From Candidatus Magasanikbacteria bacterium RIFOXYD1_FULL_40_23 (GTDB lineage Bacteria; Patescibacteriota; Patescibacteriia; Magasanikbacterales; GWA2-37-8), in contig MFRA01000001.1 in the NCBI GenBank assembly GCA_001783215.1, forward strand, positions 62,161-126,160: a DNA stretch of 64,000 nucleotides, in the 5' to 3' direction. The notes below the pieces were generated by a model. The model made no database searches, was not told where the DNA came from, and saw only the letters and a program-made list of their open reading frames with translations. A program made the position numbers and the translations under genes. Shown piece after piece: positions 9,153 through 56,821 of this stretch; the first letter of the stretch is position 1; every line of letters starts with the position of its first letter.

Positions 9153-10226
9153 ATGCCAAAAACAAAAATAAAACAAAAAATTCTTATTGCTATGAGTGGC
9201 GGGGTAGATTCTTCTGTAGCCGCAGCTCTTTTGGTTGCCAAAGGATACAATGTCACTGGCGCATTTATGGTTAATTATGACGAAGCCAAAGGCACAGAGC
9301 GTTGTTGGACAGGGGATTATCAAGACGCTTTGCGAGTGGCTGCCAAAGTAGGCATTCCGCTTCTGCGTTGGGATTTTGTAAAAGATTATAAAAAAACAGT
9401 TTTGGATTATATGTATAGCGAATACAAGCTTGGGCGAACTCCAAACCCAGATGTTTTGTGCAATAAATTTATAAAATTTGGCGCTTGGCTCGCAAAAGCC
9501 AAAGAACTTGGTTTTGATAAAATTGCTACTGGTCATTATACTGGTGTGCGACAAGATAAGAAAACAAAAATGTTTGAGTTGGTGCAAGCCAAAGACAAAA
9601 ACAAAGATCAAACATATTTTTTGCATCAATTAAATCAAGAGCAGTTAGCGCACACATTATTTCCAATTGGTAATTACACCAAACCGCAAATTAGAAAATT
9701 GGCCAAAAAATTTGGTTTGCCAAATGCGGAAAAAGAAGAAAGCATGGGTATCTGTTTTGTTGGTGAGGTGCCGATGAAAGATTTTTTGATGAAAGAAATT
9801 AAATCTAAAAAAGGGAAAATAATTTTAAGCACCGGAGAAGTTATAGGCGAACACGACGGTTTGCCGTTTTATACTATTGGCCAAAGAAACTTGGGAGTAA
9901 AAACAGATTCTAACAAGCCGTTGTATGTTGTAGATAAAAGAGGTGAGAGTAATGAGTTGGTGGTTGGATACGAAAATGATAAGTTGTTATATAAAAAAGA
10001 AGCAGAAGTTGTAGATGTGAGCTGGGTTAATGAGAAAAAAATTAAATTACCTTTAAATTGTGAAGTTCGTTTGCGCCATCGTCAGCCGTTACAGAAAGTA
10101 AAAGTAGAAATGAAAGGTGGTAAAGTAATTTTAAAGTTTTTCAAATCTCAACGAGCCGTAACCCCGGGTCAGTTTGCTGTATTTTATAAAAAAGATTTGT
10201 GTTTGGGTGGGGGAGTGATTGTTTAA
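9153..10226 (+). CDS. mnmA: tRNA-specific 2-thiouridylase MnmA
   Basis: PP-loop ILIAMSGGVDSSVAAALL; length and C-terminal domain typical of MnmA/TrmU. Confidence 0.9.
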   Translation: MPKTKIKQKILIAMSGGVDSSVAAALLVAKGYNVTGAFMVNYDEAKGTERCWTGDYQDALRVAAKVGIPLLRWDFVKDYKKTVLDYMYSEYKLGRTPNPDVLCNKFIKFGAWLAKAKELGFDKIATGHYTGVRQDKKTKMFELVQAKDKNKDQTYFLHQLNQEQLAHTLFPIGNYTKPQIRKLAKKFGLPNAEKEESMGICFVGEVPMKDFLMKEIKSKKGKIILSTGEVIGEHDGLPFYTIGQRNLGVKTDSNKPLYVVDKRGESNELVVGYENDKLLYKKEAEVVDVSWVNEKKIKLPLNCEVRLRHRQPLQKVKVEMKGGKVILKFFKSQRAVTPGQFAVFYKKDLCLGGGVIV

Positions 10227-17250: not shown

Positions 17251-17332
17251 TATTATATGGGCTAAAGCCCATATATACTCATTCACTCGGAAATAAACTA
17301 GCAAGCTATTTATTTCCTCATTCAATTCGTAT
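17251..17332 (+). repeat. ~85-bp intergenic repeat with hairpin ATATGGGC-TAAA-GCCCATAT, abutting rplQ start codon
   Basis: tattatatgggctaaagcccatatatactcattcactcgg...cattcaattcgtat immediately followed by ATG of rplQ; two further full copies in window. Confidence 0.8.
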
Positions 17333-17683
17333 ATGAGACATAAGAGCAAAAAAGTTACCCTAGATAGAAAAACAGCTGCGCGCCGATCTCTAATGGCCAA
17401 TATGGCAGAGAGCTTGGTTTTGTATGAAAAGATAAAAACTACCAAGGCCAAAGCCAAGGCTGTTCGTTCTTATGTAGAACGACTTATAACCAAAGCCAAA
17501 GGCCAAGACCTTACTGCTCGCAGAGAGCTAATGAAAGTTTTGTATACCGAAAATGCTATCAAGAAATTGTTGGAAGTGCTTGCTCCAAAATACAAAGATA
17601 GAAAAGGCGGCTATACCAGAATAGTTCTGTTCAAAAACAGAAAAGGTGACGGAGCCGAAGAGGTAATTCTAGAATTAGTTTAA
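17333..17683 (+). CDS. rplQ: ribosomal protein L17
   Basis: MRHKSKKVTLDRKTAARRSLMANMAESL L17 signature. Confidence 0.95.
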   Translation: MRHKSKKVTLDRKTAARRSLMANMAESLVLYEKIKTTKAKAKAVRSYVERLITKAKGQDLTARRELMKVLYTENAIKKLLEVLAPKYKDRKGGYTRIVLFKNRKGDGAEEVILELV

Positions 17684-36060: not shown

Positions 36061-36111
36061 ACCCCGCACCGAACATCGGGCGAGGTAAAGCGTGGGTGTT
36101 GACCGCGAGAG

Positions 36112-36369
36112 TTATCGGGGTACACGCACCTTTTGGGGTCCGTACCTTCTACAGGCGATGTCTTCCTCGGTAATATCGTTGAGGTCGAATTCCATGGAAG
36201 GCGTAAAACCGCCGGTCATGCTAGTGAAGAAGTCCTCTAGCCACTGGTTGAATTCCTTGCCCAGGGACTGTAAGAACGCAATCGTCCAGTAGGTCAGCTC
36301 TTCTCCCAAGGAGCTGAGAGAATCTGACAATTCGTCAATCAACTTCTGAAACTCACTTTTCTTCTTCAT
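36112..36369 (-). CDS. small acidic protein (85 aa), G+C-rich island 2
   Basis: AGAGGA SD before ATG; upstream TTGACC promoter-like box (36420-36415); MKKKSEFQKLIDELSDSLSSLGEELTYW... Confidence 0.5.
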   Translation of the reverse strand: MKKKSEFQKLIDELSDSLSSLGEELTYWTIAFLQSLGKEFNQWLEDFFTSMTGGFTPSMEFDLNDITEEDIACRRYGPQKVRVPR

Positions 36370-36432
36370 GGGTTCCTCTTCCCAGTATTTAACCTATCAT
36401 ATTTTAGATTAGACGGTCAATTATATACAGTA

Positions 36433-36467
36433 ACAAAAAACACTCTGTATTATAGAGTGTTTTTTGT
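36433..36467. terminator. bidirectional intrinsic terminator (A-run / palindrome / T-run)
   Basis: aaaaaacactctgtattatagagtgttttttg: stem AACACTCT/AGAGTGTT flanked by A6 and T6. Confidence 0.65.
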
Positions 36468-36603
36468 TATCCGAGTGAGGTTATATGGCTGCAAATTTGT
36501 TCACCACCATCTTTCTAAAAGACAAGTTTTATCTCTAGAAAGATAGTGAGGTGGCGAACGAATGTTGCCAGGCTCACTGTTAAACGACGTTATAGTCGGA
36601 GGG

Positions 36604-36984
36604 CTAGAAGCCCAGTGTTGCGAGAGCCTGATCGGCTTCGTCGGGAGAGCAAGTGCCCATCCGTTGAGCGATCATGATCTGGCTCGCAACAGGTGTTGCT
36701 TGCGGCAACAATTCCTCGAGCACAGACCGGCGCAAAACCATGAGCGCTTGCAGAATCGAGAGTCGATCCAACAAGGGCAGGTTCTTCTGCTGGATGCGCA
36801 ACGCAAGGACCCGAAGGTCCATTGTGCCGAACAGTACCATGCAGGCTTCGTTGTGTGAGCGAAAGCTCGGGGACTGGAAACCCCCGGGCAGTTCGCGTAA
36901 ACTGCCATCCTGGCAGAGCTCCCCAGTAGCGAGGATGAACTGACCAGTGTGGCCGATGGGCTTGACGAAAACTCGCTCGTTCAT
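36604..36984 (-). CDS. small protein (126 aa), island 2 (start at MNERVFV)
   Basis: GGAGG 10 nt upstream of ATG; balanced composition unlike overlapping Arg/Ser-rich alternative frames; own promoter. Confidence 0.55.
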   Translation of the reverse strand: MNERVFVKPIGHTGQFILATGELCQDGSLRELPGGFQSPSFRSHNEACMVLFGTMDLRVLALRIQQKNLPLLDRLSILQALMVLRRSVLEELLPQATPVASQIMIAQRMGTCSPDEADQALATLGF

Positions 36985-37049
36985 AATGATGGCCTCCAAG
37001 CCTGGTTGAGAGAACGGTTTGTTCCCTCAGCGGGCAGAAAGAACGCGTT

Positions 37050-37109
37050 ATTTTGCCGAGGGAAAGGAAAAGACGATCTTTTCGTATGTTCTTTTCCCTG
37101 GCAAAAGGC
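37050..37109 (-). promoter_or_regulatory. conserved structured 5' UTR hairpin (UUUUGCCAGGG...CCCUCGGCAAAA), copy 1 of 3
   Basis: transcript reads ccttttgccagggaaaagaacatacgaaaagatcgtcttttcctttccctcggcaaaat; outer and inner inverted repeats; ~90 nt upstream of start codon. Confidence 0.55.
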
Positions 37110-37138
37110 GTTACTGCGTGGATTGTAAAGAGCTCTGT

Positions 37139-37167
37139 AATATAGGTTAAAATCTTGCCTTTGTCAA
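37139..37167 (-). promoter_or_regulatory. sigma70-like promoter TTGACA-17-TATATT for 36604-36984
   Basis: minus strand taTTGACAaaggcaagattttaaccTATATT. Confidence 0.55.
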
Positions 37168-37367
37168 TAGGCAAACCCACCACTCTATTTGGAAATATAC
37201 CACTGGGGATATATAATCAATATACACCTAAGATGTGCCTAAAGTTACAATCTATACAAAAAATCAAAAACAGCCTTATCTAAAGCTGTTTTTTAATGGC
37301 GACGTCGTGGTATGCACGACGTCGGCGAGTCGTAATTCTTCTAAACCCGTATCATCAGTCCTGTGGA

Positions 37368-37634
37368 CTAGATGATCTCGAGTTCGACCCTCTCGTACTT
37401 GATTCCCGGATGGGTGGGCTCGTCCCAGTCGAAGTATAGCTCATACACCGCTTCGTCAACGGCAGCAGCGATCTCTTCTGGTGTTCCCAACAACATCGGC
37501 ATGGAGTCGTTGTCGTTTGCAGTCTCCTCGGTTTGAGGAGTGCTTCCGTTGTCTTCTAGAGACTGACCACGTTGATGGGTCATCAGCACGGATTCTGCAA
37601 GTGCGAGGAACTGCGGATCTTCAGGACGAATCAT
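37368..37634 (-). CDS. small acidic protein (88 aa), island 2
   Basis: AGGAG SD; MIRPEDPQFLALAESVLMTHQRGQSLEDNG...; own promoter. Confidence 0.5.
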   Translation of the reverse strand: MIRPEDPQFLALAESVLMTHQRGQSLEDNGSTPQTEETANDNDSMPMLLGTPEEIAAAVDEAVYELYFDWDEPTHPGIKYERVELEII

Positions 37635-37714
37635 TCAGTAGCTCCTAGGAGAGTGGGGTTTATCAATACGAGACGACGCGCAAGTTTGGTTGCGGTGTCT
37701 CATTATGACCAAAA

Positions 37715-37743
37715 ACCATACCATAAAATGTTGTTAAAGTCAA
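37715..37743 (-). promoter_or_regulatory. sigma70-like promoter TTGACT-17-TATGGT for 37368-37634
   Basis: minus strand cTTGACTttaacaacattttatggTATGGT. Confidence 0.5.
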
Positions 37744-37770
37744 GAGCGTAGGGTAGAAAATGATTAAAAT

Positions 37771-37817
37771 AAAAAAAGCCTCGCTTTCGCAAGGCGTCGC
37801 CGTGTATTTTGTTTTTT
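37771..37817. terminator. bidirectional intrinsic terminator
   Basis: aaaaaaagcctcgctttcgcaaggcg...tattttgttttttgg: hairpin GCCTCGC/GCAAGGC with A-run and T-run flanks. Confidence 0.55.
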
Positions 37818-37824
37818 GGCTGTT

Positions 37825-38184
37825 TTAGCCAACAATTATGGATCGCTTGACCCGATTTTCCGTAAGGTAATCAATCACTTCGGAAAGGTCTGGGTTGCTG
37901 TTTCGGATATCTCTGAAACGTGTGTTGAGCAGAGACTTTTTTCCAAAGATAGATCTTGCATACGGCAATCCATTTTGGACTATTCTCTTGACGTCGAAAC
38001 GTCTATCTTTGTTCGGCCCTTCGAAGATAACGACAGTTTCGTCATCTTCGACGATTACAGAGCAGCTCCAATCTTCTTCGCCCACCAACAGATGTGGTGG
38101 ACCAGAATCATCTTTGGGCGGTTCAAGTTTTAGCACGAGCAGGTTGATGCTGCGGAGCAAACCCATGATATGTTGTACCGTCAT
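37825..38184 (-). CDS. small protein (119 aa), island 2
   Basis: GGTGAGG SD; promoter TTGAAA-17-TATATT upstream; plus-strand overlapping ORF lacks signals. Confidence 0.5.
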   Translation of the reverse strand: MTVQHIMGLLRSINLLVLKLEPPKDDSGPPHLLVGEEDWSCSVIVEDDETVVIFEGPNKDRRFDVKRIVQNGLPYARSIFGKKSLLNTRFRDIRNSNPDLSEVIDYLTENRVKRSIIVG

Positions 38185-38217
38185 GGTGCCTCACCCTTTG
38201 GTTGTTTAGTATAGACG

Positions 38218-38246
38218 AATATACCACCAAACCTTTATTTTTTCAA
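38218..38246 (-). promoter_or_regulatory. sigma70-like promoter TTGAAA-17-TATATT for 37825-38184
   Basis: minus strand gcTTGAAAaaataaaggtttggtggTATATT. Confidence 0.5.
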
Positions 38247-38312
38247 GCTAAATTTACAACGTCACTCTTTAGCGGATGTTGCGTGGTATAACTTAATTAA
38301 GTCAAAAAAAAG

Positions 38313-38362
38313 ACCTCGTATTGAAGTTGCCTTGGGGGCTATTCAATACGAGGCTGAACGTC
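38313..38362 (-). terminator. intrinsic terminator of 38403-38798
   Basis: 12-bp stem CCTCGTATTGAA/TTCAATACGAGG with 16-nt loop, T8 on minus strand. Confidence 0.65.
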
Positions 38363-38402
38363 TTGGTCTGCTTTGCGACTGATGTCGCTGGTAGAACCTA
38401 GT

Positions 38403-38798
38403 CTACTGCTGAGCGGTGTTGCGGGGGTACAAGTAGATGTAGCACCCCGTGTCGTGCGAGTCGACCGCGTAGCCGGTCTGGTCCTTCTCGGCCTCGAGGC
38501 GGAGCTCGACGTTGGTCGGCAGGCTGCGGACGATCGCGTTGATCTCCTTGTTGGCCTTGGCGCAGGGGATGCGGCCGAGGCGAGCGCGGAGCTCGAGGTC
38601 CTGGATCTCCTTGATCGCGGCCTTGAGCTGCTTCTTGCTGATGCTCTTGGCAGCCGCGGCGCGCACGGGCTTCTTCTCGTTGGTGTCGTTCGCCTTCGAG
38701 ACGAAGCCGGCGTCGGCGTGGGCCGTGCTGATGCCGAGGTCGAACAGGGCGATGAAGCCGACGGTCAGGGCGATGGCGATGATGGCGATGCGGGTCAT
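38403..38798 (-). CDS. small secreted protein (131 aa, signal peptide), island 2
   Basis: MTRIAIIAIALTVGFIALFDLGISTAHA signal-peptide-like N-terminus; GAGGAG SD; lysine/alanine-rich mature part. Confidence 0.55.
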   Translation of the reverse strand: MTRIAIIAIALTVGFIALFDLGISTAHADAGFVSKANDTNEKKPVRAAAAKSISKKQLKAAIKEIQDLELRARLGRIPCAKANKEINAIVRSLPTNVELRLEAEKDQTGYAVDSHDTGCYIYLYPRNTAQQ

Positions 38799-38857
38799 GG
38801 GACTCTCCTCGGTAACGGGTTCGTAACGTTAACTGCTTGCCGGCGCACAAAGGTGTG

Positions 38858-38914
38858 CTTTTGTGCCGGGGAAGTGAAAGTGTAGCCTCTACACTCCCTT
38901 TTCCCTGGCAAAAC
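38858..38914 (-). promoter_or_regulatory. conserved structured 5' UTR hairpin, copy 2 of 3
   Basis: transcript reads cgttttgccagggaaaagggagtgtagaggctacactttcacttccccggcacaaaag; same outer arms UUUUGCCAGGG/CCCCGGCA.AAAA. Confidence 0.55.
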
Positions 38915-38945
38915 GCAAACAGTTATTATTAAAGATCAACAGACA

Positions 38946-38974
38946 ACTATACCATAAAACTAGGACTTTGTCAA
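38946..38974 (-). promoter_or_regulatory. sigma70-like promoter TTGACA-17-TATAGT for 38403-38798
   Basis: minus strand ccTTGACAaagtcctagttttatggTATAGT. Confidence 0.55.
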
Positions 38975-39040
38975 GGGGTTGATTTGGCGAAATCACGTCG
39001 CGTAGCGTCCATTGAACGCGACGTTTGGCTAATTTTAGGC

Positions 39041-39084
39041 AAAAAAACAGCGCTACCTACACCTAGTTGGTGAGTGGTAGCGCC
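39041..39084 (-). terminator. intrinsic terminator of 39116-39529
   Basis: minus strand gcgctaccactcaccaactaggtgtaggtagcgc then tgttttttt. Confidence 0.55.
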
Positions 39085-39115
39085 TGCGTTGGTACGGCTC
39101 TAGTCGCAGTTGCGA

Positions 39116-39529
39116 CTATGGCCAGATAAGTGGAATGTCCATGCTGGGGTAGATGGCCTCCAGGGTGTAGAGGTCCATGTCCATCACGGACAGGTACCAC
39201 TCGAAGTCGAAGAGTTCGACGGAAGTCGTGGGAGGGTTAGCATCCCACCAAGCACAGTTGCCAAACCGCCACCTTCGCAGAGCTTCGTAGTACTCCGCTT
39301 CCAGCTCGACAAGCTTGTCTCGACAAGCTTGGCTAGTCGTGCCGCCGATATAGCGACAGGTAAGCTTTGGGTATTGGAGCTGGCTCTCGGCGAGGGTGTA
39401 TCGCTGCTTCAGCTTCTTGCACGTATCGTAGTCGTACGTGCCCGAGGGTGGCGTATCGGCATAGGCCGTGCCGACGTTCGGCAGCAGCATGCCCAGAGCA
39501 ATACACATCGCGATCAGGATCTTCACCAT
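39116..39529 (-). CDS. small secreted Cys-containing protein (137 aa), island 2 (start at MVKILIAM)
   Basis: GGAGAG SD before internal Met; MVKILIAMCIALGMLLPNVGTAYA signal peptide; four Cys in mature part. Confidence 0.55.
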   Translation of the reverse strand: MVKILIAMCIALGMLLPNVGTAYADTPPSGTYDYDTCKKLKQRYTLAESQLQYPKLTCRYIGGTTSQACRDKLVELEAEYYEALRRWRFGNCAWWDANPPTTSVELFDFEWYLSVMDMDLYTLEAIYPSMDIPLIWP

Positions 39530-39564
39530 TTCTCTGTCTCTCCAATTTCTTCTGTGACGGTTGA

Positions 39565-39619
39565 TTTTTACCAAGACGAAAGAAGCTACGAATTTCGCAT
39601 ATTCTTTTATCTCGGTAAA
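39565..39619 (-). promoter_or_regulatory. conserved structured 5' UTR hairpin, copy 3 of 3 (with compensatory ACC:GGU for GCC:GGC)
   Basis: transcript reads ctttaccgagataaaagaatatgcgaaattcgtagcttctttcgtcttggtaaaaat. Confidence 0.55.
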
Positions 39620-39652
39620 GAGCAGACCGCTTGGTTAAATGAGCGATTCGCC

Positions 39653-39682
39653 ATCTTATATTAAAAAATGCCTTTTGTCAAT
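39653..39682 (-). promoter_or_regulatory. sigma70-like promoter TTGACA-17-TAAGAT for 39116-39529
   Basis: minus strand taTTGACAaaaggcattttttaataTAAGAT. Confidence 0.45.
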
Positions 39683-39699
39683 AGTCGGACTAGTAGATC

Positions 39700-40010
39700 A
39701 TTTTCAAAAATCCTTGATTTTACTTTGATTTACATGTAAAATAATCGCGTTCTTACCATTTTGTATAGCTTAACCACTTCGCGTATGGAACAGGAATAAT
39801 TACAAAATCTTCCAGTCGTGATTACCAGATTTTGTCCTTTAAAATCATCGAAAGTTTTGGTGCTTCTATTGCAGTACCAGTGGTAAGATTTGTTCTAATC
39901 GGTCAATACTTTGATAAAAAATATAACTTATAACCGTTGTTTACTGTTATAGCCTTTGTGCTGGCCGCTGCCACCACTCAAAACGCAAAAAAACTATTTA
40001 GTAAAATGAT
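39700..40010 (+). pseudogene. decayed duplicate of atp-operon promoter plus atpZ/atpI-like gene (direct repeat of 43355-43660)
   Basis: ~85% identical by eye to 43355-43660 including TTGA(t/c)T promoter; reading frame broken: atggaacaggaaTAA after 4 codons and second in-frame TAA where intact copy has LSP. Confidence 0.7.
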
Positions 40011-47475: not shown

Positions 47476-47560
47476 CGATTATATGGGCTAAAGCCCCATA
47501 TATACTCATTCGTTCGAAAATATTTTAGCAAGCTAAATATTTTACTCACTCACTTCGTAT
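47476..47560 (+). repeat. ~85-bp intergenic hairpin repeat abutting atpG start codon
   Basis: cgattatatgggctaaagccccatatatactcattcgttcgaaaatattttagcaagctaaatattttactcactcacttcgtat then ATG. Confidence 0.8.
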
Positions 47561-48505
47561 ATGGCAATTAATACAAAAGTAATCAAACGCCGCCTTAAAT
47601 CTATTGGTAGTACCAAAAAAATTACCAAAGCTATGGAGATGATTGCGGCTGCCAAAATGCGCAAAGCGGTAAGCGCTGCTATAGATACGCGCGCTTATTC
47701 CAGCTTGGCTTGGGAACTTTTGGTTAACTTGTCCAAAACTCAAAAAGTACAAATTCCATTGTTGGAAGCAAGGCAAGTAAAAAAGATTTTGGTTATCATG
47801 ATTACTTCTAATCGTGGTTTGTGTGGTAGTTTTAATGCCAATATTATAAAAAAGACCGCTCTGCAAATGAAGGATCCAAAAAATATTGCTAAACAGGTAA
47901 TTGATGGAAAAGAAATATTGCCAAGCGACAGAGTAGAGGTAGATGTAATTGGTATTGGTAAAAAAGGCGCAGACTTTGCCAAAAAGATGGGCTACAACCT
48001 TACCGCCGCTTTTTCTAACATGACAGATACTCCAAATTTTGATGATGCGTTACCGATTGCCAAAATGGTAATAGATGCATATGAGAAAAAAACTTACGAC
48101 AAAGTAATTGTTGCTTATACCGATTTTAAATCGGCTTTAGTGCAAACTGCCAGACTACGACAAGTGTTGCCAATATCCGAATCTGATTTAGAAAAAACTT
48201 TATTTGATACAGAAGAAAAAAACTCTGTAAAAGAAAAAACAAATTTAAATGATTATTTATTTGAACCAAACAGAACTGATGTTTTACAAATAATTTTACC
48301 AAGGCTGGTTGAAACACAAATTTATCAAACGATGCTAGAATCTTCGGCCAGTGAACATAGTAGTCGTATGGTGGCTATGAAAGCTGCTAGTGAAGCAGCC
48401 AAAGATATGATAAGTGAATTAAATTTAACATTTAATAAAGCTAGACAAGCGGGCATCACCCAAGAGATCGCAGAGATCGCAGGTGGGGCAGCAGCGCTAG
48501 AATAA
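47561..48505 (+). CDS. atpG: F0F1 ATP synthase subunit gamma
   Basis: MAINTKVIKRRLKSIGSTKKITKAMEMIAAAK N-terminus; C-terminal helix. Confidence 0.9.
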   Translation: MAINTKVIKRRLKSIGSTKKITKAMEMIAAAKMRKAVSAAIDTRAYSSLAWELLVNLSKTQKVQIPLLEARQVKKILVIMITSNRGLCGSFNANIIKKTALQMKDPKNIAKQVIDGKEILPSDRVEVDVIGIGKKGADFAKKMGYNLTAAFSNMTDTPNFDDALPIAKMVIDAYEKKTYDKVIVAYTDFKSALVQTARLRQVLPISESDLEKTLFDTEEKNSVKEKTNLNDYLFEPNRTDVLQIILPRLVETQIYQTMLESSASEHSSRMVAMKAASEAAKDMISELNLTFNKARQAGITQEIAEIAGGAAALE

Positions 48506-50034: not shown

Positions 50035-50078
50035 TTAAGCCTGCCGGATTAAGGGCAGGCGTAAAGATCGGTAAGGCA

Positions 50079-50363
50079 CTATTCTGGAAATGGAAGGAAC
50101 GACATAACACGGAGAGTTTCATATGGAGGAGAGTGGTGAAAGCGGGGGCAAATGTCACCAAGATAATCCCACAACTCTTTTTCTCCAAGATCCTCACGCA
50201 AATTCTCCCAGTTATACCTCTGAACTGGTTTAGACAGTAAATTAGTTAAACGGTCAAGGATCTCAATCGTAGCAGAAACTTTAAGCACCCTTGCCTCCAT
50301 AAAATTACCAATCTTATCAAAAGCATGGATAAGGAGCAACCATTCTCTAGATTTCTGTGACAT
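50079..50363 (-). CDS. small protein (94 aa) encoded antisense between atpD and atpC
   Basis: AGGAGG 8 nt before ATG; minus-strand promoter TTGACA-17-TATACT; shares hairpin terminator GCCTGCC..GGCAGGC (50039-50061) with atpD. Confidence 0.45.
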   Translation of the reverse strand: MSQKSREWLLLIHAFDKIGNFMEARVLKVSATIEILDRLTNLLSKPVQRYNWENLREDLGEKELWDYLGDICPRFHHSPPYETLRVMSFLPFPE

Positions 50364-50384
50364 GGTAAGATCCTCCTAGAAAGG

Positions 50385-50413
50385 AGTATAGAAAAATAAA
50401 AATTTTATGTCAA
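50385..50413 (-). promoter_or_regulatory. sigma70-like promoter TTGACA-17-TATACT for the antisense small gene; -35 overlaps atpC start codon
   Basis: minus strand gtgTTGACAtaaaatttttatttttcTATACT. Confidence 0.45.
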
Positions 50414-50838
50414 CACTAAAATTCAAAATCGTAACACCGGAAAAAACAATTTACGAAAATGAAATTTTCCAAGCCACTATTCCTACTATGGAAGGTGAGA
50501 TTACGGTTCTTCCAAATCATATTCCACTTATTTCTGTTCTCAAAGCCGGTGAATTAAAATTCAAAGATAAAGAAGGTGAACAGCAAATGGCAGTCTCTGG
50601 TGGATTTTTGGAAGTAAGAGGAAAAAATGAAATTGTAATTTTAGCAGATCATGCGCAGAGAGTAGCCGAGATAGATGTGGATAAAGCCGAAGAAGCTCGC
50701 GCACGTGCTGAAGAACAAATGGCAAATCTAAAGAATGCTCAAGATGTAGATTATGCAAAACTTCAAGCTATAATGGATAGAGAATTAAACAAATTGCGAG
50801 TCGCAAAAAAGTATAAAAATCTTCCAATTAGTAAATAA
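50407..50838 (+). CDS. atpC: F0F1 ATP synthase subunit epsilon
   Basis: 143 aa, beta-sandwich plus C-terminal helical hairpin, operon position. Confidence 0.85.
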   Translation: MSTLKFKIVTPEKTIYENEIFQATIPTMEGEITVLPNHIPLISVLKAGELKFKDKEGEQQMAVSGGFLEVRGKNEIVILADHAQRVAEIDVDKAEEARARAEEQMANLKNAQDVDYAKLQAIMDRELNKLRVAKKYKNLPISK

Positions 50839-50847
50839 TAAATCTGA

Positions 50848-50876
50848 TTGACAAGCCGTTGTAAATAAGGTATATA
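50848..50876 (+). promoter_or_regulatory. sigma70 consensus promoter TTGACA-17-TATATA for Cys-rich peptide gene
   Basis: ttgacaagccgttgtaaataaggtatata. Confidence 0.55.
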
Positions 50877-50932
50877 TATTGGATATAATTTAGTCGTTCC
50901 TAAACGACCTCTAAATCATAATCTTATATCCT

Positions 50933-51067
50933 ATGGAAAAGTGTCAAAAATGTAGAACTGTACTTGAAGAGATGAATGATTCTTGTTTATGTAATGAAAG
51001 CGTTTGTGTGCGTTGTTGCGGATGTGATGAAAGCTGTGGTTGCGAATGTATTGATAAACAAAGTTAA
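50933..51067 (+). CDS. 44-aa cysteine-rich peptide (11 Cys); below ORF-track size cut-off
   Basis: translation MEKCQKCRTVLEEMNDSCLCNESVCVRCCGCDESCGCECIDKQS; dedicated promoter and downstream terminator; no SD. Confidence 0.5.
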   Translation: MEKCQKCRTVLEEMNDSCLCNESVCVRCCGCDESCGCECIDKQS

Positions 51068-51146
51068 CTATTACTTCTTTAAATTTTCAACTTCCTAGCC
51101 AATATTAGTAACATTTTGGCTTTTCTTACGTCTTCTATTGTATAAT

Positions 51147-51168
51147 AACCTTTGTAAAAAGGGTTTTT
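51147..51168 (+). terminator. intrinsic terminator after Cys-rich peptide gene
   Basis: aacctttgtaaaaagggttttt. Confidence 0.45.
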
Positions 51169-51200
51169 GACTGTTTTTGCAATAAAACAGCGTTTATTTT

Positions 51201-52964
51201 ATGCAAGAAAATACCAAAAAAACACTTGGAATATTCTGGAAGTATACAATGAAATACTGGCCAGCTTTTTTTATTACCGTATTTTTTTTGGTCGTAGGTG
51301 CGATTATTACTGTTATTACTCCAATTTATCTCAAAAAGATAGTTGATTTAATGTCTGCCGGCTCTTTGGCTAGAAATGAAACATACAAAAACTTAATGAG
51401 TATTTTGTCTGTTATAGTTATATTATATATTGTGGAATGGGCAGCTTGGCGCATATCCACCTATTTTGCGGGTAGGGTAGAGTTGCGAGTGATGGCAGAT
51501 TTAAGCAATGCCTGTTTTAAATATTTACATAAACTATCTTTTAACTTTTTTAATAATAATTTTGTCGGTTCTTTGGTAAAACGGGTTAATTGGTTTACCC
51601 GCGCTTACGAAGGCATTATAGAAGTATTTTTCTGGGATCTTTTCTTGGTCGTTGTTAGAATCGGCCTAATGCTGGTAGTTATTTTCCAACGTAATACGAT
51701 TTTAGGATGGAGTTTAGTTGGTTGGATTGTCTGTTTTTTGGTTTTCAATCAAATGTTTGTAAAGTTTAAATTAAAATATAATCTAAAAAGAAACGACGCC
51801 GAAACTAAAGCCACTGGAATTTTGGCAGATACTATTACCAACCATTTGAACGTGAAGTTGTTTACTGGTTATAAACATGAAGAAAAGAGATATGGCGATA
51901 TTACAAACGAAGTAAAAAAATGGCGCACAATTACTTGGAATTTAGATACACTGTTCGAAGCGGTGCAGAGCTTTTTTATGTTTGCGCTAGACGTTGGTAT
52001 TTTGTATTTGGCCATCACATTTTGGAAAAAAGGTACGCTTACGGTAGGTGATCTGGTTCTACTTCAAACCTATTTGTTCGGCATGATTTCTATGTTGTGG
52101 AGTTTTGGTAGAAATATACGTAGAATTTATAATCATTTGGCCGATGCAGAAGAGATGACGGTGATGTTTAATACGCCACCAGAGATTGTAGATCTGTCTA
52201 AAGCCGTAGCTTTGAAACCGGGAGCCGGAAAAATAGAATTCAAAAATGTTTCTTTTAACTATAATCAAACCAAAGAAATTTTAAAGAAACTAAACTTGGT
52301 TATTTCTCCGCAAGAAAAGATAGCTTTGGTTGGTCCGTCCGGAGCCGGCAAAAGTACGATTACAAAATTATTACTACGCCTTTATGAATTGTCTGCTGGT
52401 AAAATTTTGGTGGATAACCAAGATATCTCTAAAGTAAAAATGGAAAGTCTTTGGCAGAATGTTAGCTTGGTGCCACAAGATCCGATACTATTTCACCGCA
52501 CACTGCTCGAAAATATTCGTTATGGTAAGCCAGACGCTACCGAAGCCGAGGTTTTTGAAGCTGCCAAATTGGCGCACTGCGATGAATTTATAAAAGACTT
52601 CCCAGAAGGTTATGCCACTTTTGTGGGTGAAAGAGGTGTTAAATTGTCTGGCGGAGAACGCCAGCGTGTGGCTATTGCTAGAGCTATACTGCACAACGCC
52701 CCGATTCTAATTTTAGACGAAGCTACTTCTAGTCTTGATTCTGAATCAGAACAACTAATCCAAAAAGCGCTAGATGTTTTGATAAAAGGTAAAACAGTGA
52801 TTGTGATTGCGCACAGACTTTCTACTATTATGAAAATGGATAGGATTTTGGTAGTAAAAGATGGAAAAATTACTGAAACTGGCTCCCATAAAGAACTATT
52901 GCAAAAAGAAGATGGTATATACAAAAAGCTTTGGGAAGTGCAAGCGGGTGGATTTATTGCTTAA
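51201..52964 (+). CDS. ABC exporter, fused permease + ATPase (MsbA/MdlB-like)
   Basis: six N-terminal TM segments; Walker A GPSGAGKST, signature LSGGERQRVAIARAIL, Walker B ILILDEAT. Confidence 0.85.
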   Translation: MQENTKKTLGIFWKYTMKYWPAFFITVFFLVVGAIITVITPIYLKKIVDLMSAGSLARNETYKNLMSILSVIVILYIVEWAAWRISTYFAGRVELRVMADLSNACFKYLHKLSFNFFNNNFVGSLVKRVNWFTRAYEGIIEVFFWDLFLVVVRIGLMLVVIFQRNTILGWSLVGWIVCFLVFNQMFVKFKLKYNLKRNDAETKATGILADTITNHLNVKLFTGYKHEEKRYGDITNEVKKWRTITWNLDTLFEAVQSFFMFALDVGILYLAITFWKKGTLTVGDLVLLQTYLFGMISMLWSFGRNIRRIYNHLADAEEMTVMFNTPPEIVDLSKAVALKPGAGKIEFKNVSFNYNQTKEILKKLNLVISPQEKIALVGPSGAGKSTITKLLLRLYELSAGKILVDNQDISKVKMESLWQNVSLVPQDPILFHRTLLENIRYGKPDATEAEVFEAAKLAHCDEFIKDFPEGYATFVGERGVKLSGGERQRVAIARAILHNAPILILDEATSSLDSESEQLIQKALDVLIKGKTVIVIAHRLSTIMKMDRILVVKDGKITETGSHKELLQKEDGIYKKLWEVQAGGFIA

Positions 52965-53063: not shown

Positions 53064-56000
53064 ATGACCACAGGTTCTGCAAAATCCGTAAACGATGCTG
53101 TTTTCTTGCAAAAATACAAAAAATTAAACGAGCAGCAAAAATTAGCCGTAGATACAATTGAAGGTGCGGTACTAGTGATTGCTGGCCCAGGTTCTGGTAA
53201 AACAGAGCTTTTAAGTTTGCGCGTAGCTAATATTTTACAAAAAGGCGATGTTTATCCGTCCAATATTTTGTGTTTAACCTTTACTGACTTTGCCGCCAAA
53301 AACATGAGTGATAGGTTGTCTGCCCTAATAGGAGTAGATGCACACAGAGTAGCGATACATACATTTCATAGCTTTGCTCTAAATATCAAAAATCGTTTTC
53401 AAGAAAATTTTTACGAAGCCCAAAAAATGAATGCTTCCGACGAGTTAATTCAGATAGAAACACTTTCCGAAATACTTGCCACCTTGCCATTGTCGGACGC
53501 CTTAAGTAAAAAAGATGCAACTGGTGCTTATTTTTATTTAAATAGTATAAAAGACAGAATTGGTAAATTAAAAAAGGCTGGCATAACGCCGCTAGAATAT
53601 CAAAAGATACTTAATACAAACTCTGTTTGTTATAAAGAAATTGAAAAAATACTCATCCCAGCTTTTCAAGACAGAATATCAAAAAGTCTTCGTGATGAGC
53701 TGCCAAAGATAATTGCGCAGATAGATGCGATTAAAACGCCAAGTGTGCCGGTAGATCATAGTAGTCTTTTTGATTACAAAGAATTATTAATGCAATCTCT
53801 TTCTTTTGCTTACGAAAAATCAGTAGAAGAAAACGGCACAAAATCACTAACCGTTTGGAAAGATGAATGGTTGAAAAAAGATTCAGATACCAAAGAATTA
53901 CATCTGAAAGATGCGCACCAGTTAGAGAGGAACATATCTCTTGCGCAAGTTTATAAAATTTATCAAGAAAAAATGCTTTTGGCCGGGTATGTAGACTTTG
54001 ACGATATGATTATGGATCTTCTTCGTGTGTTGCATAGTAAAAAGGGGATACTTAGTCAACTCCAGGAGCAGTACCAATATATTTTGGTAGATGAGTTTCA
54101 AGATACAAATGATGCTCAGATGCGAATTATAAATTTGCTTGCAGATAATTCGGTGAACGAAAACAATCCTAATATAATGGTGGTGGGGGACGATGATCAA
54201 GCTGTTTATAAATTTCAAGGTGCCGAAATAAATAATATTTTACAATTTAAAAAACAGTATCCAAAAGCCAAAATAATAACCCTCTCCAAGAATTATCGCT
54301 CTACCAAAGAGATTGTTGATTTTTCGCAAATTATTATTTCTCAAGGCGATGTTCGTCTAACAAATCAAGTTAAAGAAATAGAAAAAAAGCTAGAAGCAGC
54401 CAATCCAAATATTGCTGAAGGCGCTATCGTGGCGCACACTTTTGATACCGCTCTTCACGAATATGCATATGTGGCCACCGAAATAAAAAATAAAATTGAT
54501 AGTGGTGTAAATCCAGATGATATTGCTGTTATAGCCAGAAATCACTATCAGTTGGAGATGGTGTCCACTTATTTGGAAACAGAAAATATTCCCATTAAAT
54601 ACGAAAAGCAGAGAAATATATTAAACGAACCACAAATACAGCAACTTATATCGCTAGCTCGTTTAGTAGAATCAATTTCAAGTAGTAGTACAAATTACCA
54701 AAATGACTTATTACCAATCGTGTTATCATTTCCGTTTTGGGAAATTGAACGCCAAACAATTTGGCAGTTGTCTATTGATGCCAGTAAGACTATAAAAAGT
54801 GATAAAAATGGTCGTTGGATAGATGTTATGCTTGCTGGTGAAAATGCTCATCTAAAAAATATAGCTAATTGGCTACTAACTCTGGCAGGTGAGGCTCAGA
54901 CAGATCCGCTAGATTCAATGTTTGATAAGTTAATTGGACCAGAAGAAGAAATGGATTCTTTCTCCTCTCCGTTTCGCCGTTTTTATTTTAGCAAAGAAAA
55001 ATACGAGCAAAACCCTAGAGCCTATTTGCAGTTTTTATCAAGTTTAAATACCTTTAAAAATACAATTTCTCTGTACGGTACCAGAACAAATTCTCCTCGC
55101 TTAGCAAGCTTGGTGGCCTGTGTGGATGTTTACCAGAAAAATAATTTAGCGATTACTGATACAAGTCCATATTTAAGTGGTACAAATGCGGTTTCTCTAC
55201 TTACTGCGCACAAAGCAAAAGGGTCGGAGTTTGATACCGTGTTTGTGGTAAATTGCCAAAATGATGTTTGGGCAAAATCACAAGGTAGAGATATGATTGC
55301 GTTTCCAAAGAATCTACCAATTGATCCATCTGGCGATACGCTAGATGATTTCTTGCGTATCTTTTTTGTGGCTTTAACTAGAGCAAAAAGACATTTATAT
55401 GTTACTAGTTATATAAAAGAAGAAAATGGCAAAGACTCTTTGCAGATTCCTTTCTTGGAGCCGTCTATCTTTGCTGATTTTGATCATAAGATAGATGCTG
55501 CTCACCAAAAAATGGAACTACTACATACAATAAAAACTTTAGAGAAAAACATTCTTCCAAAAGTTGGGCCGATTGCTACAGACGAACGCCCGATCCTTCA
55601 ACCATTATTGGATAATTATATAATGAGCGTAACTCACCTAAACAATTTTCTTGATGTTGAAAAAGGCGGACCGCACCATTTCTTTGAACAGAATTTTTTG
55701 CGATTCCCTCAGGCAAAATCAGCGCACACATCTTATGGTACAGCTATGCACGAAACAATGCAGGGTATTTATAATTATATAAAAAGTACGGGCAAAAAAC
55801 CTTCGCTATCAAAAGCGCAAGAAATTTTTAAAGAGAAATTAGTGCAGCAAGCAATGAGCGAACAGGATTTTAAAAACTATCTTGAAGAGGGTAATAGTGC
55901 CTGGAAAGTCTATATAGAAAAAGTAAGCGATCGTTTTGATCCGTCCCATTGGATAGAAACTGATTTTAGAACGCAAAGTGTAATGATTGAGAATGTCCAA

Positions 56001-56420
56001 ATTACAGGTAAAATAGATAAGATTGTTCCCAATGAGCAGGACAAGGTGTTGGAAGTTTATGATTTTAAAACAGGAAAACCCCAAAAAGATTGGAATGGAA
56101 AAAATGAAATTAAAAAAATCCAACTTCATAATTATAAAAGACAGCTTGTCTTCTATAAACTTTTGGTAGAAGGTTCACGTGATTTTCATAAATACAGAGT
56201 AAACAATGGATACTTGGAGTTCTTGAATCCTGCTAGCGACGAAGAAATGGTCGTGTTGCCATATGTGATTACTTCCGAAGATGTGGAGAGGCTAAAGAAA
56301 TTAATACAGGCTGTTTATAACAAGATACAAGCGTTAGACTTTTTGGATGTTAATAAGTATGAGCCAACTTTGGAGGGTATGCTTCAATTTGAAGATGATT
56401 TAATAAATGGTGTGGTTTAA
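53064..56420 (+). CDS. UvrD-family helicase fused to C-terminal PD-(D/E)xK nuclease domain (AddA/RecB-like)
   Basis: N-terminal IAGPGSGKTELL, YILVDEFQDTN, C-terminal GKIDKIV...EVYDFKTGK nuclease-like block. Confidence 0.7.
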   Translation: MTTGSAKSVNDAVFLQKYKKLNEQQKLAVDTIEGAVLVIAGPGSGKTELLSLRVANILQKGDVYPSNILCLTFTDFAAKNMSDRLSALIGVDAHRVAIHTFHSFALNIKNRFQENFYEAQKMNASDELIQIETLSEILATLPLSDALSKKDATGAYFYLNSIKDRIGKLKKAGITPLEYQKILNTNSVCYKEIEKILIPAFQDRISKSLRDELPKIIAQIDAIKTPSVPVDHSSLFDYKELLMQSLSFAYEKSVEENGTKSLTVWKDEWLKKDSDTKELHLKDAHQLERNISLAQVYKIYQEKMLLAGYVDFDDMIMDLLRVLHSKKGILSQLQEQYQYILVDEFQDTNDAQMRIINLLADNSVNENNPNIMVVGDDDQAVYKFQGAEINNILQFKKQYPKAKIITLSKNYRSTKEIVDFSQIIISQGDVRLTNQVKEIEKKLEAANPNIAEGAIVAHTFDTALHEYAYVATEIKNKIDSGVNPDDIAVIARNHYQLEMVSTYLETENIPIKYEKQRNILNEPQIQQLISLARLVESISSSSTNYQNDLLPIVLSFPFWEIERQTIWQLSIDASKTIKSDKNGRWIDVMLAGENAHLKNIANWLLTLAGEAQTDPLDSMFDKLIGPEEEMDSFSSPFRRFYFSKEKYEQNPRAYLQFLSSLNTFKNTISLYGTRTNSPRLASLVACVDVYQKNNLAITDTSPYLSGTNAVSLLTAHKAKGSEFDTVFVVNCQNDVWAKSQGRDMIAFPKNLPIDPSGDTLDDFLRIFFVALTRAKRHLYVTSYIKEENGKDSLQIPFLEPSIFADFDHKIDAAHQKMELLHTIKTLEKNILPKVGPIATDERPILQPLLDNYIMSVTHLNNFLDVEKGGPHHFFEQNFLRFPQAKSAHTSYGTAMHETMQGIYNYIKSTGKKPSLSKAQEIFKEKLVQQAMSEQDFKNYLEEGNSAWKVYIEKVSDRFDPSHWIETDFRTQSVMIENVQITGKIDKIVPNEQDKVLEVYDFKTGKPQKDWNGKNEIKKIQLHNYKRQLVFYKLLVEGSRDFHKYRVNNGYLEFLNPASDEEMVVLPYVITSEDVERLKKLIQAVYNKIQALDFLDVNKYEPTLEGMLQFEDDLINGVV

Positions 56421-56440: not shown

Positions 56441-56524
56441 TTATATAGGGGCTAAAGCCACATATATACTCGTTCGCTCAAAAATATATTAGCAAGCTAA
56501 ATATTTTATTTACTCACTTCGTAT
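56441..56524 (+). repeat. ~85-bp intergenic hairpin repeat abutting start codon of DUF721-like gene
   Basis: tttatataggggctaaagccacatatatactcgttcgctcaaaaatatattagcaagctaaatattttatttactcacttcgtat then ATG; ~90% identical to 47476 copy. Confidence 0.8.
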
Positions 56525-56821
56525 ATGGCAATGCAATCACTAGGACAAATTCTAAAAAAACAAATGCCGCAAAGCTCCGCTGGCAAACAAGTGACAGCCA
56601 GCTTTATCGTAGAAAAAGCAAACCAAACTATAAAAGAACTATTTGGTGCTGGTTCATCTAAATTTTGTCAGGCTGTATATTTCAAAGATAAAACTATCGC
56701 CATTACTTGTCTTAGCTCCGTAATGGCTCAAGAAATTAAGCTAAACGAGAAAAAAATAATATCTGCAACTAACGATAAATTGGGTGTGCAAGCTATAGAA
56801 AAAGTGCGATATTTGTTCTAA
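56525..56821 (+). CDS. DUF721/DciA-like small protein
   Basis: 98 aa; pattern ...ASFIVEKANQTIKELFGAGSSKFCQAVYFKDKTIAITCLSSVMAQEIKLNEKKII... resembles DUF721 (V..F..G.L.I.V.S..WAQEL). Confidence 0.45.
   Translation: MAMQSLGQILKKQMPQSSAGKQVTASFIVEKANQTIKELFGAGSSKFCQAVYFKDKTIAITCLSSVMAQEIKLNEKKIISATNDKLGVQAIEKVRYLF

Follow-up and report, generated by a model that had tools for sequence, protein, structure and literature searches.

Metallothioneins are recognized operationally, by a low molecular weight, a Cys content of 15 to 30%, CxC, CxxC and CC motifs, and few or no aromatic residues; the alpha-domain of the vertebrate proteins uses 11 Cys for an M4S11 cluster. We describe here a gene for a 44-amino-acid (aa) protein with 11 Cys whose composition places it in this operational class, as the first-pass annotation, which read the DNA without database searches, had suggested. 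The gene lies in a 64,000-nucleotide (nt) stretch of the uncultured groundwater bacterium Candidatus Magasanikbacteria bacterium RIFOXYD1_FULL_40_23 (GenBank assembly GCA_001783215.1, contig MFRA01000001.1, positions 62,161 to 126,160 of the forward strand), which we call the window, between the end of the atp operon and a gene for an ATP-binding cassette (ABC) exporter. Like metallothioneins, the window peptide is small, is 25% Cys, has CxC, CxxC and CC motifs and 11 Cys in all, and contains no aromatic or His residues. Unlike them, it belongs to a family without sequence homology to theirs, its Cys spacing is different and strictly invariant, it is acidic, and its metal binding is predicted. 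The bacterial SmtA/BmtA metallothioneins (PF02069) have a zinc-finger-like fold that holds four Zn (PMC10612145). The peptide resembles these in being bacterial, about 50 aa long and, by prediction, cytosolic, and it would be expected to have a rigid Cys-defined fold with about four Zn; it differs in Cys spacing, taxon and gene context. We rejected membership in this family, whose ligands are Cys9His2, since the peptide matched no Pfam profile at an E value of ≤10 and offers no His ligands.

Other short proteins and other exporters provide further comparisons. Small regulators of F-type ATP synthases include the cyanobacterial AtpTheta, the alphaproteobacterial zeta and the mitochondrial IF1. 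The peptide is likewise a protein of about 45 aa genetically associated with an ATP synthase, but those regulators are not Cys rich and share no sequence similarity with it, and the association here is one of gene order only. SCIFF peptides and other ranthipeptides, which have radical S-adenosylmethionine (radical-SAM) maturases and PCAT exporters, resemble this locus in that a short Cys-rich open reading frame (ORF) stands beside an ABC exporter. The locus differs from them in having no leader/core split, no exporter peptidase domain and no maturase (radical SAM, LanM, YcaO or similar) among the window genes scanned (35.2 to 36.9 kb and 40.0 to 63.7 kb) or in the 10 kb flanking related loci, a search that did not extend to the remainder of the genome, and the peptide did not match the SCIFF model TIGR03973 in NCBIfam at an E value of ≤10. 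We therefore found no support for a PCAT-type ribosomally synthesized and posttranslationally modified peptide (RiPP) or bacteriocin system, which had been the other proposal of the first-pass annotation: the C39 domain, the leader with a variable core and, in the regions scanned, a nearby maturase are all missing. That annotation had itself remarked that no peptidase domain or modification enzyme was evident nearby, and this agrees with our scans.

The ORF begins with ATG 94 nt 3' of atpC and ends 133 nt 5' of the ABC gene (Table 1). Its product is MEKCQKCRTVLEEMNDSCLCNESVCVRCCGCDESCGCECIDKQS. The protein (4.9 kDa; isoelectric point, 4.4; grand average of hydropathy, −0.34) contains CxxC, CxC, CC and CxCxC motifs and no Phe, Trp, Tyr or His, of which distant family members have one to five. 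Given the Cys background of the window (0.55% of 15,343 residues in 46 ORFs), 11 or more Cys would occur among 44 residues with a binomial probability of about 10^−15. No hydrophobic segment or signal peptide was found in the protein. Nor was there a leader or double-glycine motif in the family, where conservation runs from Met1 on without a hypervariable core and the position of G30 is occupied by G, Q, E, A, S or D. The ORF was left uncalled in public assemblies of the same genome. It was described correctly by the first-pass annotation, which also held that a missing Shine-Dalgarno (SD) motif is the norm in this genome; only 5 of 47 genes have an SD motif, so its absence before this ORF is uninformative.

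Homologs of the peptide were found at 89%, 80%, 72% and 41 to 50% identity in database searches, and scans of genome and metagenome collections added others. The related loci that we fetched (L001 to L041) come from Ca. Magasanikbacteria and other Patescibacteria metagenome-assembled genomes, mostly from groundwater. They contain 18 distinct homologous sequences, and there are three further homologous proteins (P0007 to P0009); identities range from 41 to 93%. The family pattern is C-x2-C-x10-C-x-C-x4-C-x2-CC-x-C-x3-C-x-C-x-C, with all 11 Cys kept down to 41% identity and a slight variant of the spacing in L041. The ratio of nonsynonymous to synonymous changes (pN/pS), pooled over 11 pairs, was 0.13 in the Cys frame versus 1.70 and 1.06 in the other two frames, and differences at codon positions 1, 2 and 3 numbered 37, 34 and 131. 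Usage of the two Cys codons was balanced (TGT to TGC, 99 to 100). Synonymous sites were saturated between most lineages, with nonsynonymous divergence (dN) of 0.03 to 0.2, and the noncoding DNA flanking the ORF was not conserved while the ORF was. Judged by these frame-specific substitutions, the invariant Cys and the unconserved flanks, the ORF is a real coding gene under purifying selection, and the alternative of a small RNA (sRNA) is excluded. The first-pass annotation had named a lost ORF under a conserved promoter as the sign of an sRNA; we found the opposite, a conserved ORF and a promoter that is not. An overlapping 40-aa ORF in the +1 frame (50976 to 51098) was rejected, its pN/pS being 1.7 and its start codon unconserved.

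No family match for the window peptide was obtained in Pfam or NCBIfam (both at an E value of ≤10), PHROGs or PDB. Pfam, NCBIfam and PHROGs scans of 10 family members also returned no family, the sole Pfam match being Fer4 for one member (E = 0.93), and a PDB profile search found only a RING domain at a nonsignificant E value of 2.8. A full HMMER search of 1.84 billion representative proteins returned only four clusters. By these searches the peptides would form a new sequence family that does not extend beyond Ca. Magasanikbacteria and a few related Patescibacteria. Nothing relevant was found in the literature on Cys-rich small proteins in Candidate Phyla Radiation (CPR) bacteria or in ATP synthase operons. 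One homologous locus is aberrant: in L040 (984 to 1127), a TGA at 1093 to 1095 stands in place of one invariant Cys codon (CG*GC), and beyond it the frame continues uninterrupted for another 10 codons to the usual stop. A recent nonsense mutation or a sequencing error could account for this, as could, improbably, selenocysteine; inspection by eye revealed no convincing hairpin like a selenocysteine insertion sequence.

We compared gene order across lineages by tblastn with the window neighbors against the loci fetched by then, together with ORF maps (Table 1). Directly upstream of the peptide gene in most main-clade lineages is atpC, the last canonical gene of the atp operon, and the placement of the peptide gene directly before an ABC exporter gene, as first described, is found in the window and in many relatives. 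A neighbor-joining tree of atpC gives the ABC-positive arrangement as the inferred ancestral state of the slot, and by this tree and the gene order the pairing of peptide and exporter looks ancestral. Peptide and ABC genes stay paired in L033, where atpC is not adjacent. The ABC gene was lost from the slot at least three times, and the peptide in those lineages is still 72 to 93% identical to that of the window; on this evidence, retention of the peptide does not depend on the exporter. In the genome collection the nearest relative of the window is L010 (atpD 98% and peptide 93% identical), which has no ABC gene in the slot. L013 has lost the peptide and kept the atp operon. Distant members (L019 to L021, L036 and L041) sit in unrelated contexts, with neighbors such as a P2-type ATPase, a cupin and an RRM protein. 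The L037 contig begins inside the peptide ORF, and atpC is not visible there. In L014 a different ORF (9569 to 9748; 59 aa, 10 Cys, MEELKTCASCSGPACMECGGCSACSTCSCGSGE...) occupies the same slot directly upstream of an ABC ortholog and its leader block; here, too, atpC is not adjacent. It has its own promoter-like site and terminator-like hairpin and a different Cys spacing. Its only match in the protein database was itself, and as a singleton it gives no independent support for a link between Cys-rich peptides and the exporter.

The 587-aa product of the ABC gene is a homodimeric half-transporter of the same build as Atm1, ABCB7, ABCB6 and HMT1. It has no C39 peptidase domain; the bacteriocin_ABC model aligned only from its position 160, omitting the peptidase part. 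The protein scored below every NCBIfam cutoff, including that of MsbA TIGR02203 (402 bits versus a cutoff of 602). Against solved structures, the membrane domain alone scored 58 bits with NaAtm1, 53 with ABCB7, 46 with AtATM3 and 40 with MsbA. When a membrane-domain profile built from nine orthologs was searched against PDB, the top 19 sequences were all Atm1, ABCB7, ABCB6 or ATM3 (89 to 66 bits; NaAtm1, 89). The next families were TM288 (60 bits) and Sav1866 (48 bits), about 30 bits below the Atm1-type best in the former case, and MsbA was absent from the matches at an E value of ≤10^−10. We therefore rejected the earlier label of "MsbA type." On these profile scores the exporter is of Atm1-like affinity, its closest solved relatives being the Atm1/ABCB7/ABCB6 exporters, with no orthology implied.

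Exporters of the Atm1 clade export glutathione- or phytochelatin-bound metals, sulfur or Fe-S species (PMC9000953, PMC11143254, PMC6424863). Their conserved glutathione pocket comprises T317, R324, R328, N387, Q390, L433, G437 and R441 in AtAtm3, with the motif PLxxLGxVYR in transmembrane helix 6 (TM6) (PMC9000953). In a pairwise, low-identity alignment with NaAtm1, four of the eight pocket residues were identical (Q272, L315, G319 and R323) and R206 was replaced by K. Unlike Atm1-type exporters, the protein lacks T199, R210 and N269, and Pro314 at the TM6 kink is Met, its motif being MLWSFGRNIR; the position of R323 is R or Q among its orthologs. Given these unconserved pocket residues and the missing kink Pro, its substrate probably differs from glutathione disulfide.

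With moderate confidence, we read the peptide as a metallothionein-like metal-thiolate mini-protein for which the Atm1-like pump is a plausible but dispensable partner. It would be a translated, soluble, acidic, cytoplasmic mini-protein whose 11 invariant Cys most likely form a metal-thiolate cluster. The cluster would probably hold three or four divalent ions such as Zn or Cd, or else several Cu(I), with an Fe-S center as the less likely alternative. Its gene occupies a fixed slot after atpC, with an Atm1/HMT-like ABC exporter as the seemingly ancestral downstream neighbor. The likeliest relationship between the two would be an optional partnership in thiol or metal handling, with the protein serving as a metal buffer or donor and the pump removing a thiol-bound species. 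The profile match of the membrane domain to Atm1, ABCB7 and ABCB6 makes a thiol or metal link for the peptide more plausible, and secretion of the peptide as a processed product is improbable.

Several observations weigh against the metallothionein-like reading. The family has no homology to any characterized metallothionein, and no metal resistance gene or metal sensor occurs among the neighbors in any context; all of them are housekeeping or unrelated genes (in the main clade, atp, helicase-nuclease and dciA). The strictly invariant spacing and residues such as L11 and N/D21-E22-S23 fit a folded, zinc-finger-like module better than a plastic metallothionein. The ABC gene is missing beside the peptide gene in L008/L010, L025 to L027, L029 and the L031 to L039 group, and the exporter retains only four of the eight Atm1 glutathione-pocket residues (residue list, PMC9000953), with the TM6 Pro changed to Met. 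An AlphaFold2 model of the peptide from a 10-sequence alignment was uninformative (mean predicted local distance difference test score, 57; predicted template modeling score, 0.28).

A bolder version, to which we give little credence, makes the 11-Cys peptide a gene-encoded thiol ligand for the Atm1/HMT-type exporter in bacteria assumed to have no glutathione or phytochelatin synthesis. The peptide would capture metal, Fe-S or persulfide, and the pump would export the complex or strip the peptide. If true, such a pair would parallel the phytochelatin-HMT1/ABCB6 system, with a gene-encoded ligand.

Table 1. Features around the 44-aa ORF (window positions) and arrangements of its slot in related loci
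Feature	Position	Strand	Basis or detail
atpC, F-ATPase epsilon subunit	50407..50838	+	Pfam ATP-synt_DE_N and ATP-synt_DE; synteny across loci
Promoter-like region	50848..50889	+	TTGACA 50848-50853, 17-nt spacer, TATATA 50871-50876; second, perfect TATAAT 50884-50889
Leader hairpin GUCGUU-CCUA-AACGAC	50893..50908	+	Fold −6 kcal/mol, z = −3.5
Gene for 44-aa, 11-Cys protein	50933..51067	+	ATG start; ORF read from sequence; homologs; substitution pattern
Weak terminator-like hairpin AGCCAA / 13-nt loop / UUGGCU, then UUUCUU	51097..51128	+	Hairpin 51097-51121; −6.2 kcal/mol
Conserved noncoding block GTAACA ... TTACGTCTTCTATTGTATAAT	51108..51146	+	Upstream of ABC gene; includes TATAAT 51141-51146
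Two ABC-leader hairpins	51147..51165 and 51171..51190	+	Fold
ABC half-transporter, 587 aa	51201..52964	+	Pfam ABC_membrane and ABC_tran only (membrane domain and nucleotide-binding domain)
Slot: atpC, peptide, ABC, helicase-nuclease, dciA			Window/L007, L001 group, L009/L012/L030, L011, L016 group, L022-L024, L040
Slot: peptide and ABC, no atpC within 2.5 kb upstream			L033
Slot: atpC, peptide, helicase, no ABC			L025-L027
Slot: peptide then helicase directly, no ABC; no atpC in the 600 nt available upstream			L029
Slot: atpC, 182-aa gene, peptide, helicase, no ABC			L008, L010
Slot: atpC, peptide, DUF2779 gene, dciA, no ABC			L031, L032, L034, L038/L039, L037

The peptide gene had first been described as a stand-alone unit with a perfect promoter, a leader hairpin and an intrinsic terminator. 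The TTGACA-17-TATATA arrangement is present, but its −10 element matches TATAAT at only four of six positions and has no final T, so that a consensus scan did not list the site; promoter-like sites in the region numbered 9, against 9.6 expected from shuffles. TTGACA-N17-TATAWW occurs three times in the window versus 0.10 expected, and this excess, with the perfect TATAAT just downstream, makes a promoter before the peptide gene plausible. The leader hairpin was found as described. This promoter and hairpin are common only to the window and its closest relative, L007, where one base of the loop is changed, and are absent where the gene abuts atpC. The proposed terminator is present as a hairpin with a U-rich tail, but it is weak: the stem is 6 bp, z is −1.8, 12 of 200 shuffles fold as well, and a terminator scan did not detect it. 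Promoter-like −10 elements precede the peptide gene in the window/L007, L023/L040, L031/L033 and L038, some of them after a clear intrinsic terminator (e.g., L040 923 to 947). In six lineages (L001, L009, L011, L012, L016 and L025) the gene starts 8 to 38 nt past atpC, a distance that could scarcely accommodate a promoter, if at all. The gene is thus probably read through from the atp operon in some lineages and, judged by these elements, appears to have its own promoter in others, including the window, so that the stand-alone description fits the window lineage and some others and not the family as a whole. By reading of the sequence, ABC-less lineages (L008 and L025) have a terminator-like hairpin 3' of the peptide gene.

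In ABC-bearing lineages the two genes are separated by a conserved block (GTAACA ... TTACGTCTTCTATAGTAgAA) and by a hairpin whose sequence varies with the lineage, which suggests a separate ABC control region. The block aligned in the window, where it occurs once, and in L007, L009, L011, L012, L016 and L033, and it was also seen in L014; at the aligned position of the first ABC-leader hairpin (51147 to 51165), other lineages have a hairpin of different sequence. The block probably serves the ABC gene as a promoter or operator of its own; it may instead be a 5' untranslated region element. A small TTCTA/TAGAA palindrome lies within the block upstream of the ABC gene (GTAACA ... TTTTACGTCTTCTATAGTAGAA). 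Rfam had no match for the block and its hairpins (51108 to 51190), and Rfam scans of the whole window (gathering threshold) and of 50780 to 51260 (E-value threshold) gave chance-level matches only. A different leader motif, TACTCACTCACTTCGTAT, was found at 17315 to 17335, 47543 to 47563 and 56507 to 56527 (three window matches versus none expected) and immediately precedes the ATG of several genes, atpG and dciA among them; in L029, L034 and L038 it is also present before the peptide gene. In a genome so poor in SD motifs, it may serve as a leader for SD-independent translation.

Four other explanations of the peptide were weighed. A possible though unlikely one is that it is a structural zinc-finger micro-protein acting through a partner, either as an accessory or regulator through which the F-type ATP synthase would respond to metal or redox state or as a binder of nucleic acid or of the adjacent helicase. 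Its rigidly invariant spacing would suit such a module. The first six Cys are spaced in what we take to be a C4C4 RING-type cross-brace, and a RING domain was the only, nonsignificant, PDB match. Further points in its favor are the position directly after atpC in most main-clade lineages, often at 8 to 38 nt and probably cotranscribed, and the hairpin after the peptide gene in ABC-less L008 and L025, which would place the peptide gene at the end of the atp transcription unit. The atp adjacency is weak evidence, however, because the whole atp-dciA-mreBCD-pbp2 block is syntenic. Moreover, the distant members L019 to L021 and L041 are not near atp genes and none was seen on the 1-kb L036 contig, insertions part the peptide from atpC in L008/L010, L033 has no atpC close upstream, and L013 does without the peptide. 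A more doubtful explanation is that the peptide is the cargo of the exporter, whether as a secreted Cys-rich bacteriocin or RiPP-like product or as a gene-encoded "phytochelatin" exported metal loaded. The pair is adjacent in eight lineages and inferred to be ancestral, it is intact in L033, L014 has a different Cys-rich ORF before its exporter, and the exporter is Atm1/HMT-like, from a clade that moves thiol-peptide metal complexes (PMC11143254). Against this stand the repeated independent loss of the exporter beside a well-kept peptide, uniform conservation from Met1 with no leader, GG motif or signal peptide, the missing C39 domain, the lack of a maturase in the scanned window genes and lineage flanks, the conserved promoter-like block that parts the two genes, and the singleton status and different spacing of the L014 ORF.

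It is very improbable that the ORF is a Cys-codon-rich leader peptide that senses cysteinyl-tRNA and attenuates a downstream thiol exporter. There are 11 Cys codons upstream of an exporter related to thiol pumps, and the three hairpins in the interval before the ABC start, two with U-runs after them, would suit attenuation, but the first hairpin begins 30 nt past the stop codon, beyond the footprint of a terminating ribosome, and the hairpins lie downstream of the conserved promoter-like block. We rejected an amino-acid-sensing attenuator also on the strong purifying selection on non-Cys residues and exact spacing (pN/pS, 0.13) and on the retention of the ORF without the ABC gene in at least three lineages. 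A chance open frame in an sRNA or an untranslated spacer is scarcely conceivable. That the ORF is short, has no SD motif and was skipped by gene callers would fit such a frame, but SD motifs are rare genome-wide, and the reading is refuted by the substitution pattern, which is constrained in this frame only and concentrated at third codon positions, by the Cys kept at 41% identity, and by the unconserved flanking noncoding DNA. A metallothionein-like mini-protein remains our preferred reading.

The surroundings of the slot showed further features. The gene at 53064 to 56420 is swapped between lineages: some have an 1,118-aa UvrD and PD-(D/E)XK helicase-nuclease, some a helicase-nuclease of about 980 aa that is unrelated to the first (about 25% identity), and some a DUF2779 protein of 501 aa, and dciA is always next after it; the slot after the peptide and ABC genes looks like a local gene replacement hotspot. 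Upstream, the atpD-atpC gap (50035 to 50406) is 372 nt in the window versus 57 nt in L001. It holds a 94-aa ORF on the reverse strand (50363..50082), with a promoter-like site that matches 11 of 12 positions (50413..50385, reverse strand). This ORF has no Pfam match and no counterpart in related loci and is called in other assemblies of this genome. The same spacer in L010 (5786 to 6047) contains a translated repeat of the "...IPAKAGIQ..." type, which we take to be typical of widespread intergenic repeat elements. Between a TatD gene and the atp operon lies a GC-rich island (about 36100 to 39700; 45 to 58% GC versus 31 to 40% around it), where ORFs overlap on both strands with no clear gene. 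L001 has a much shorter homologous interval, and a similar GC-rich insert occurs in L014 (6400 to 7200). No tRNA genes were found.

To our knowledge, few families of bacterial metallothionein-like proteins have been described, and we know of none in the CPR. The unannotated sequence family is new, its general kind, small Cys-rich metal-binding proteins, is known, and no unexpected mechanism is demonstrated here. What is unusual is the setting, at the end of the atp operon and beside an Atm1-like pump in CPR bacteria. Because the family is tiny and easily synthesized and has a rigid 11-Cys signature, its metal chemistry is directly testable. Missed by standard gene callers, it is another conserved micro-protein lost from annotation, and its seemingly ancestral pairing with an Atm1-like pump would provide a concrete substrate hypothesis for a bacterial relative of Atm1.

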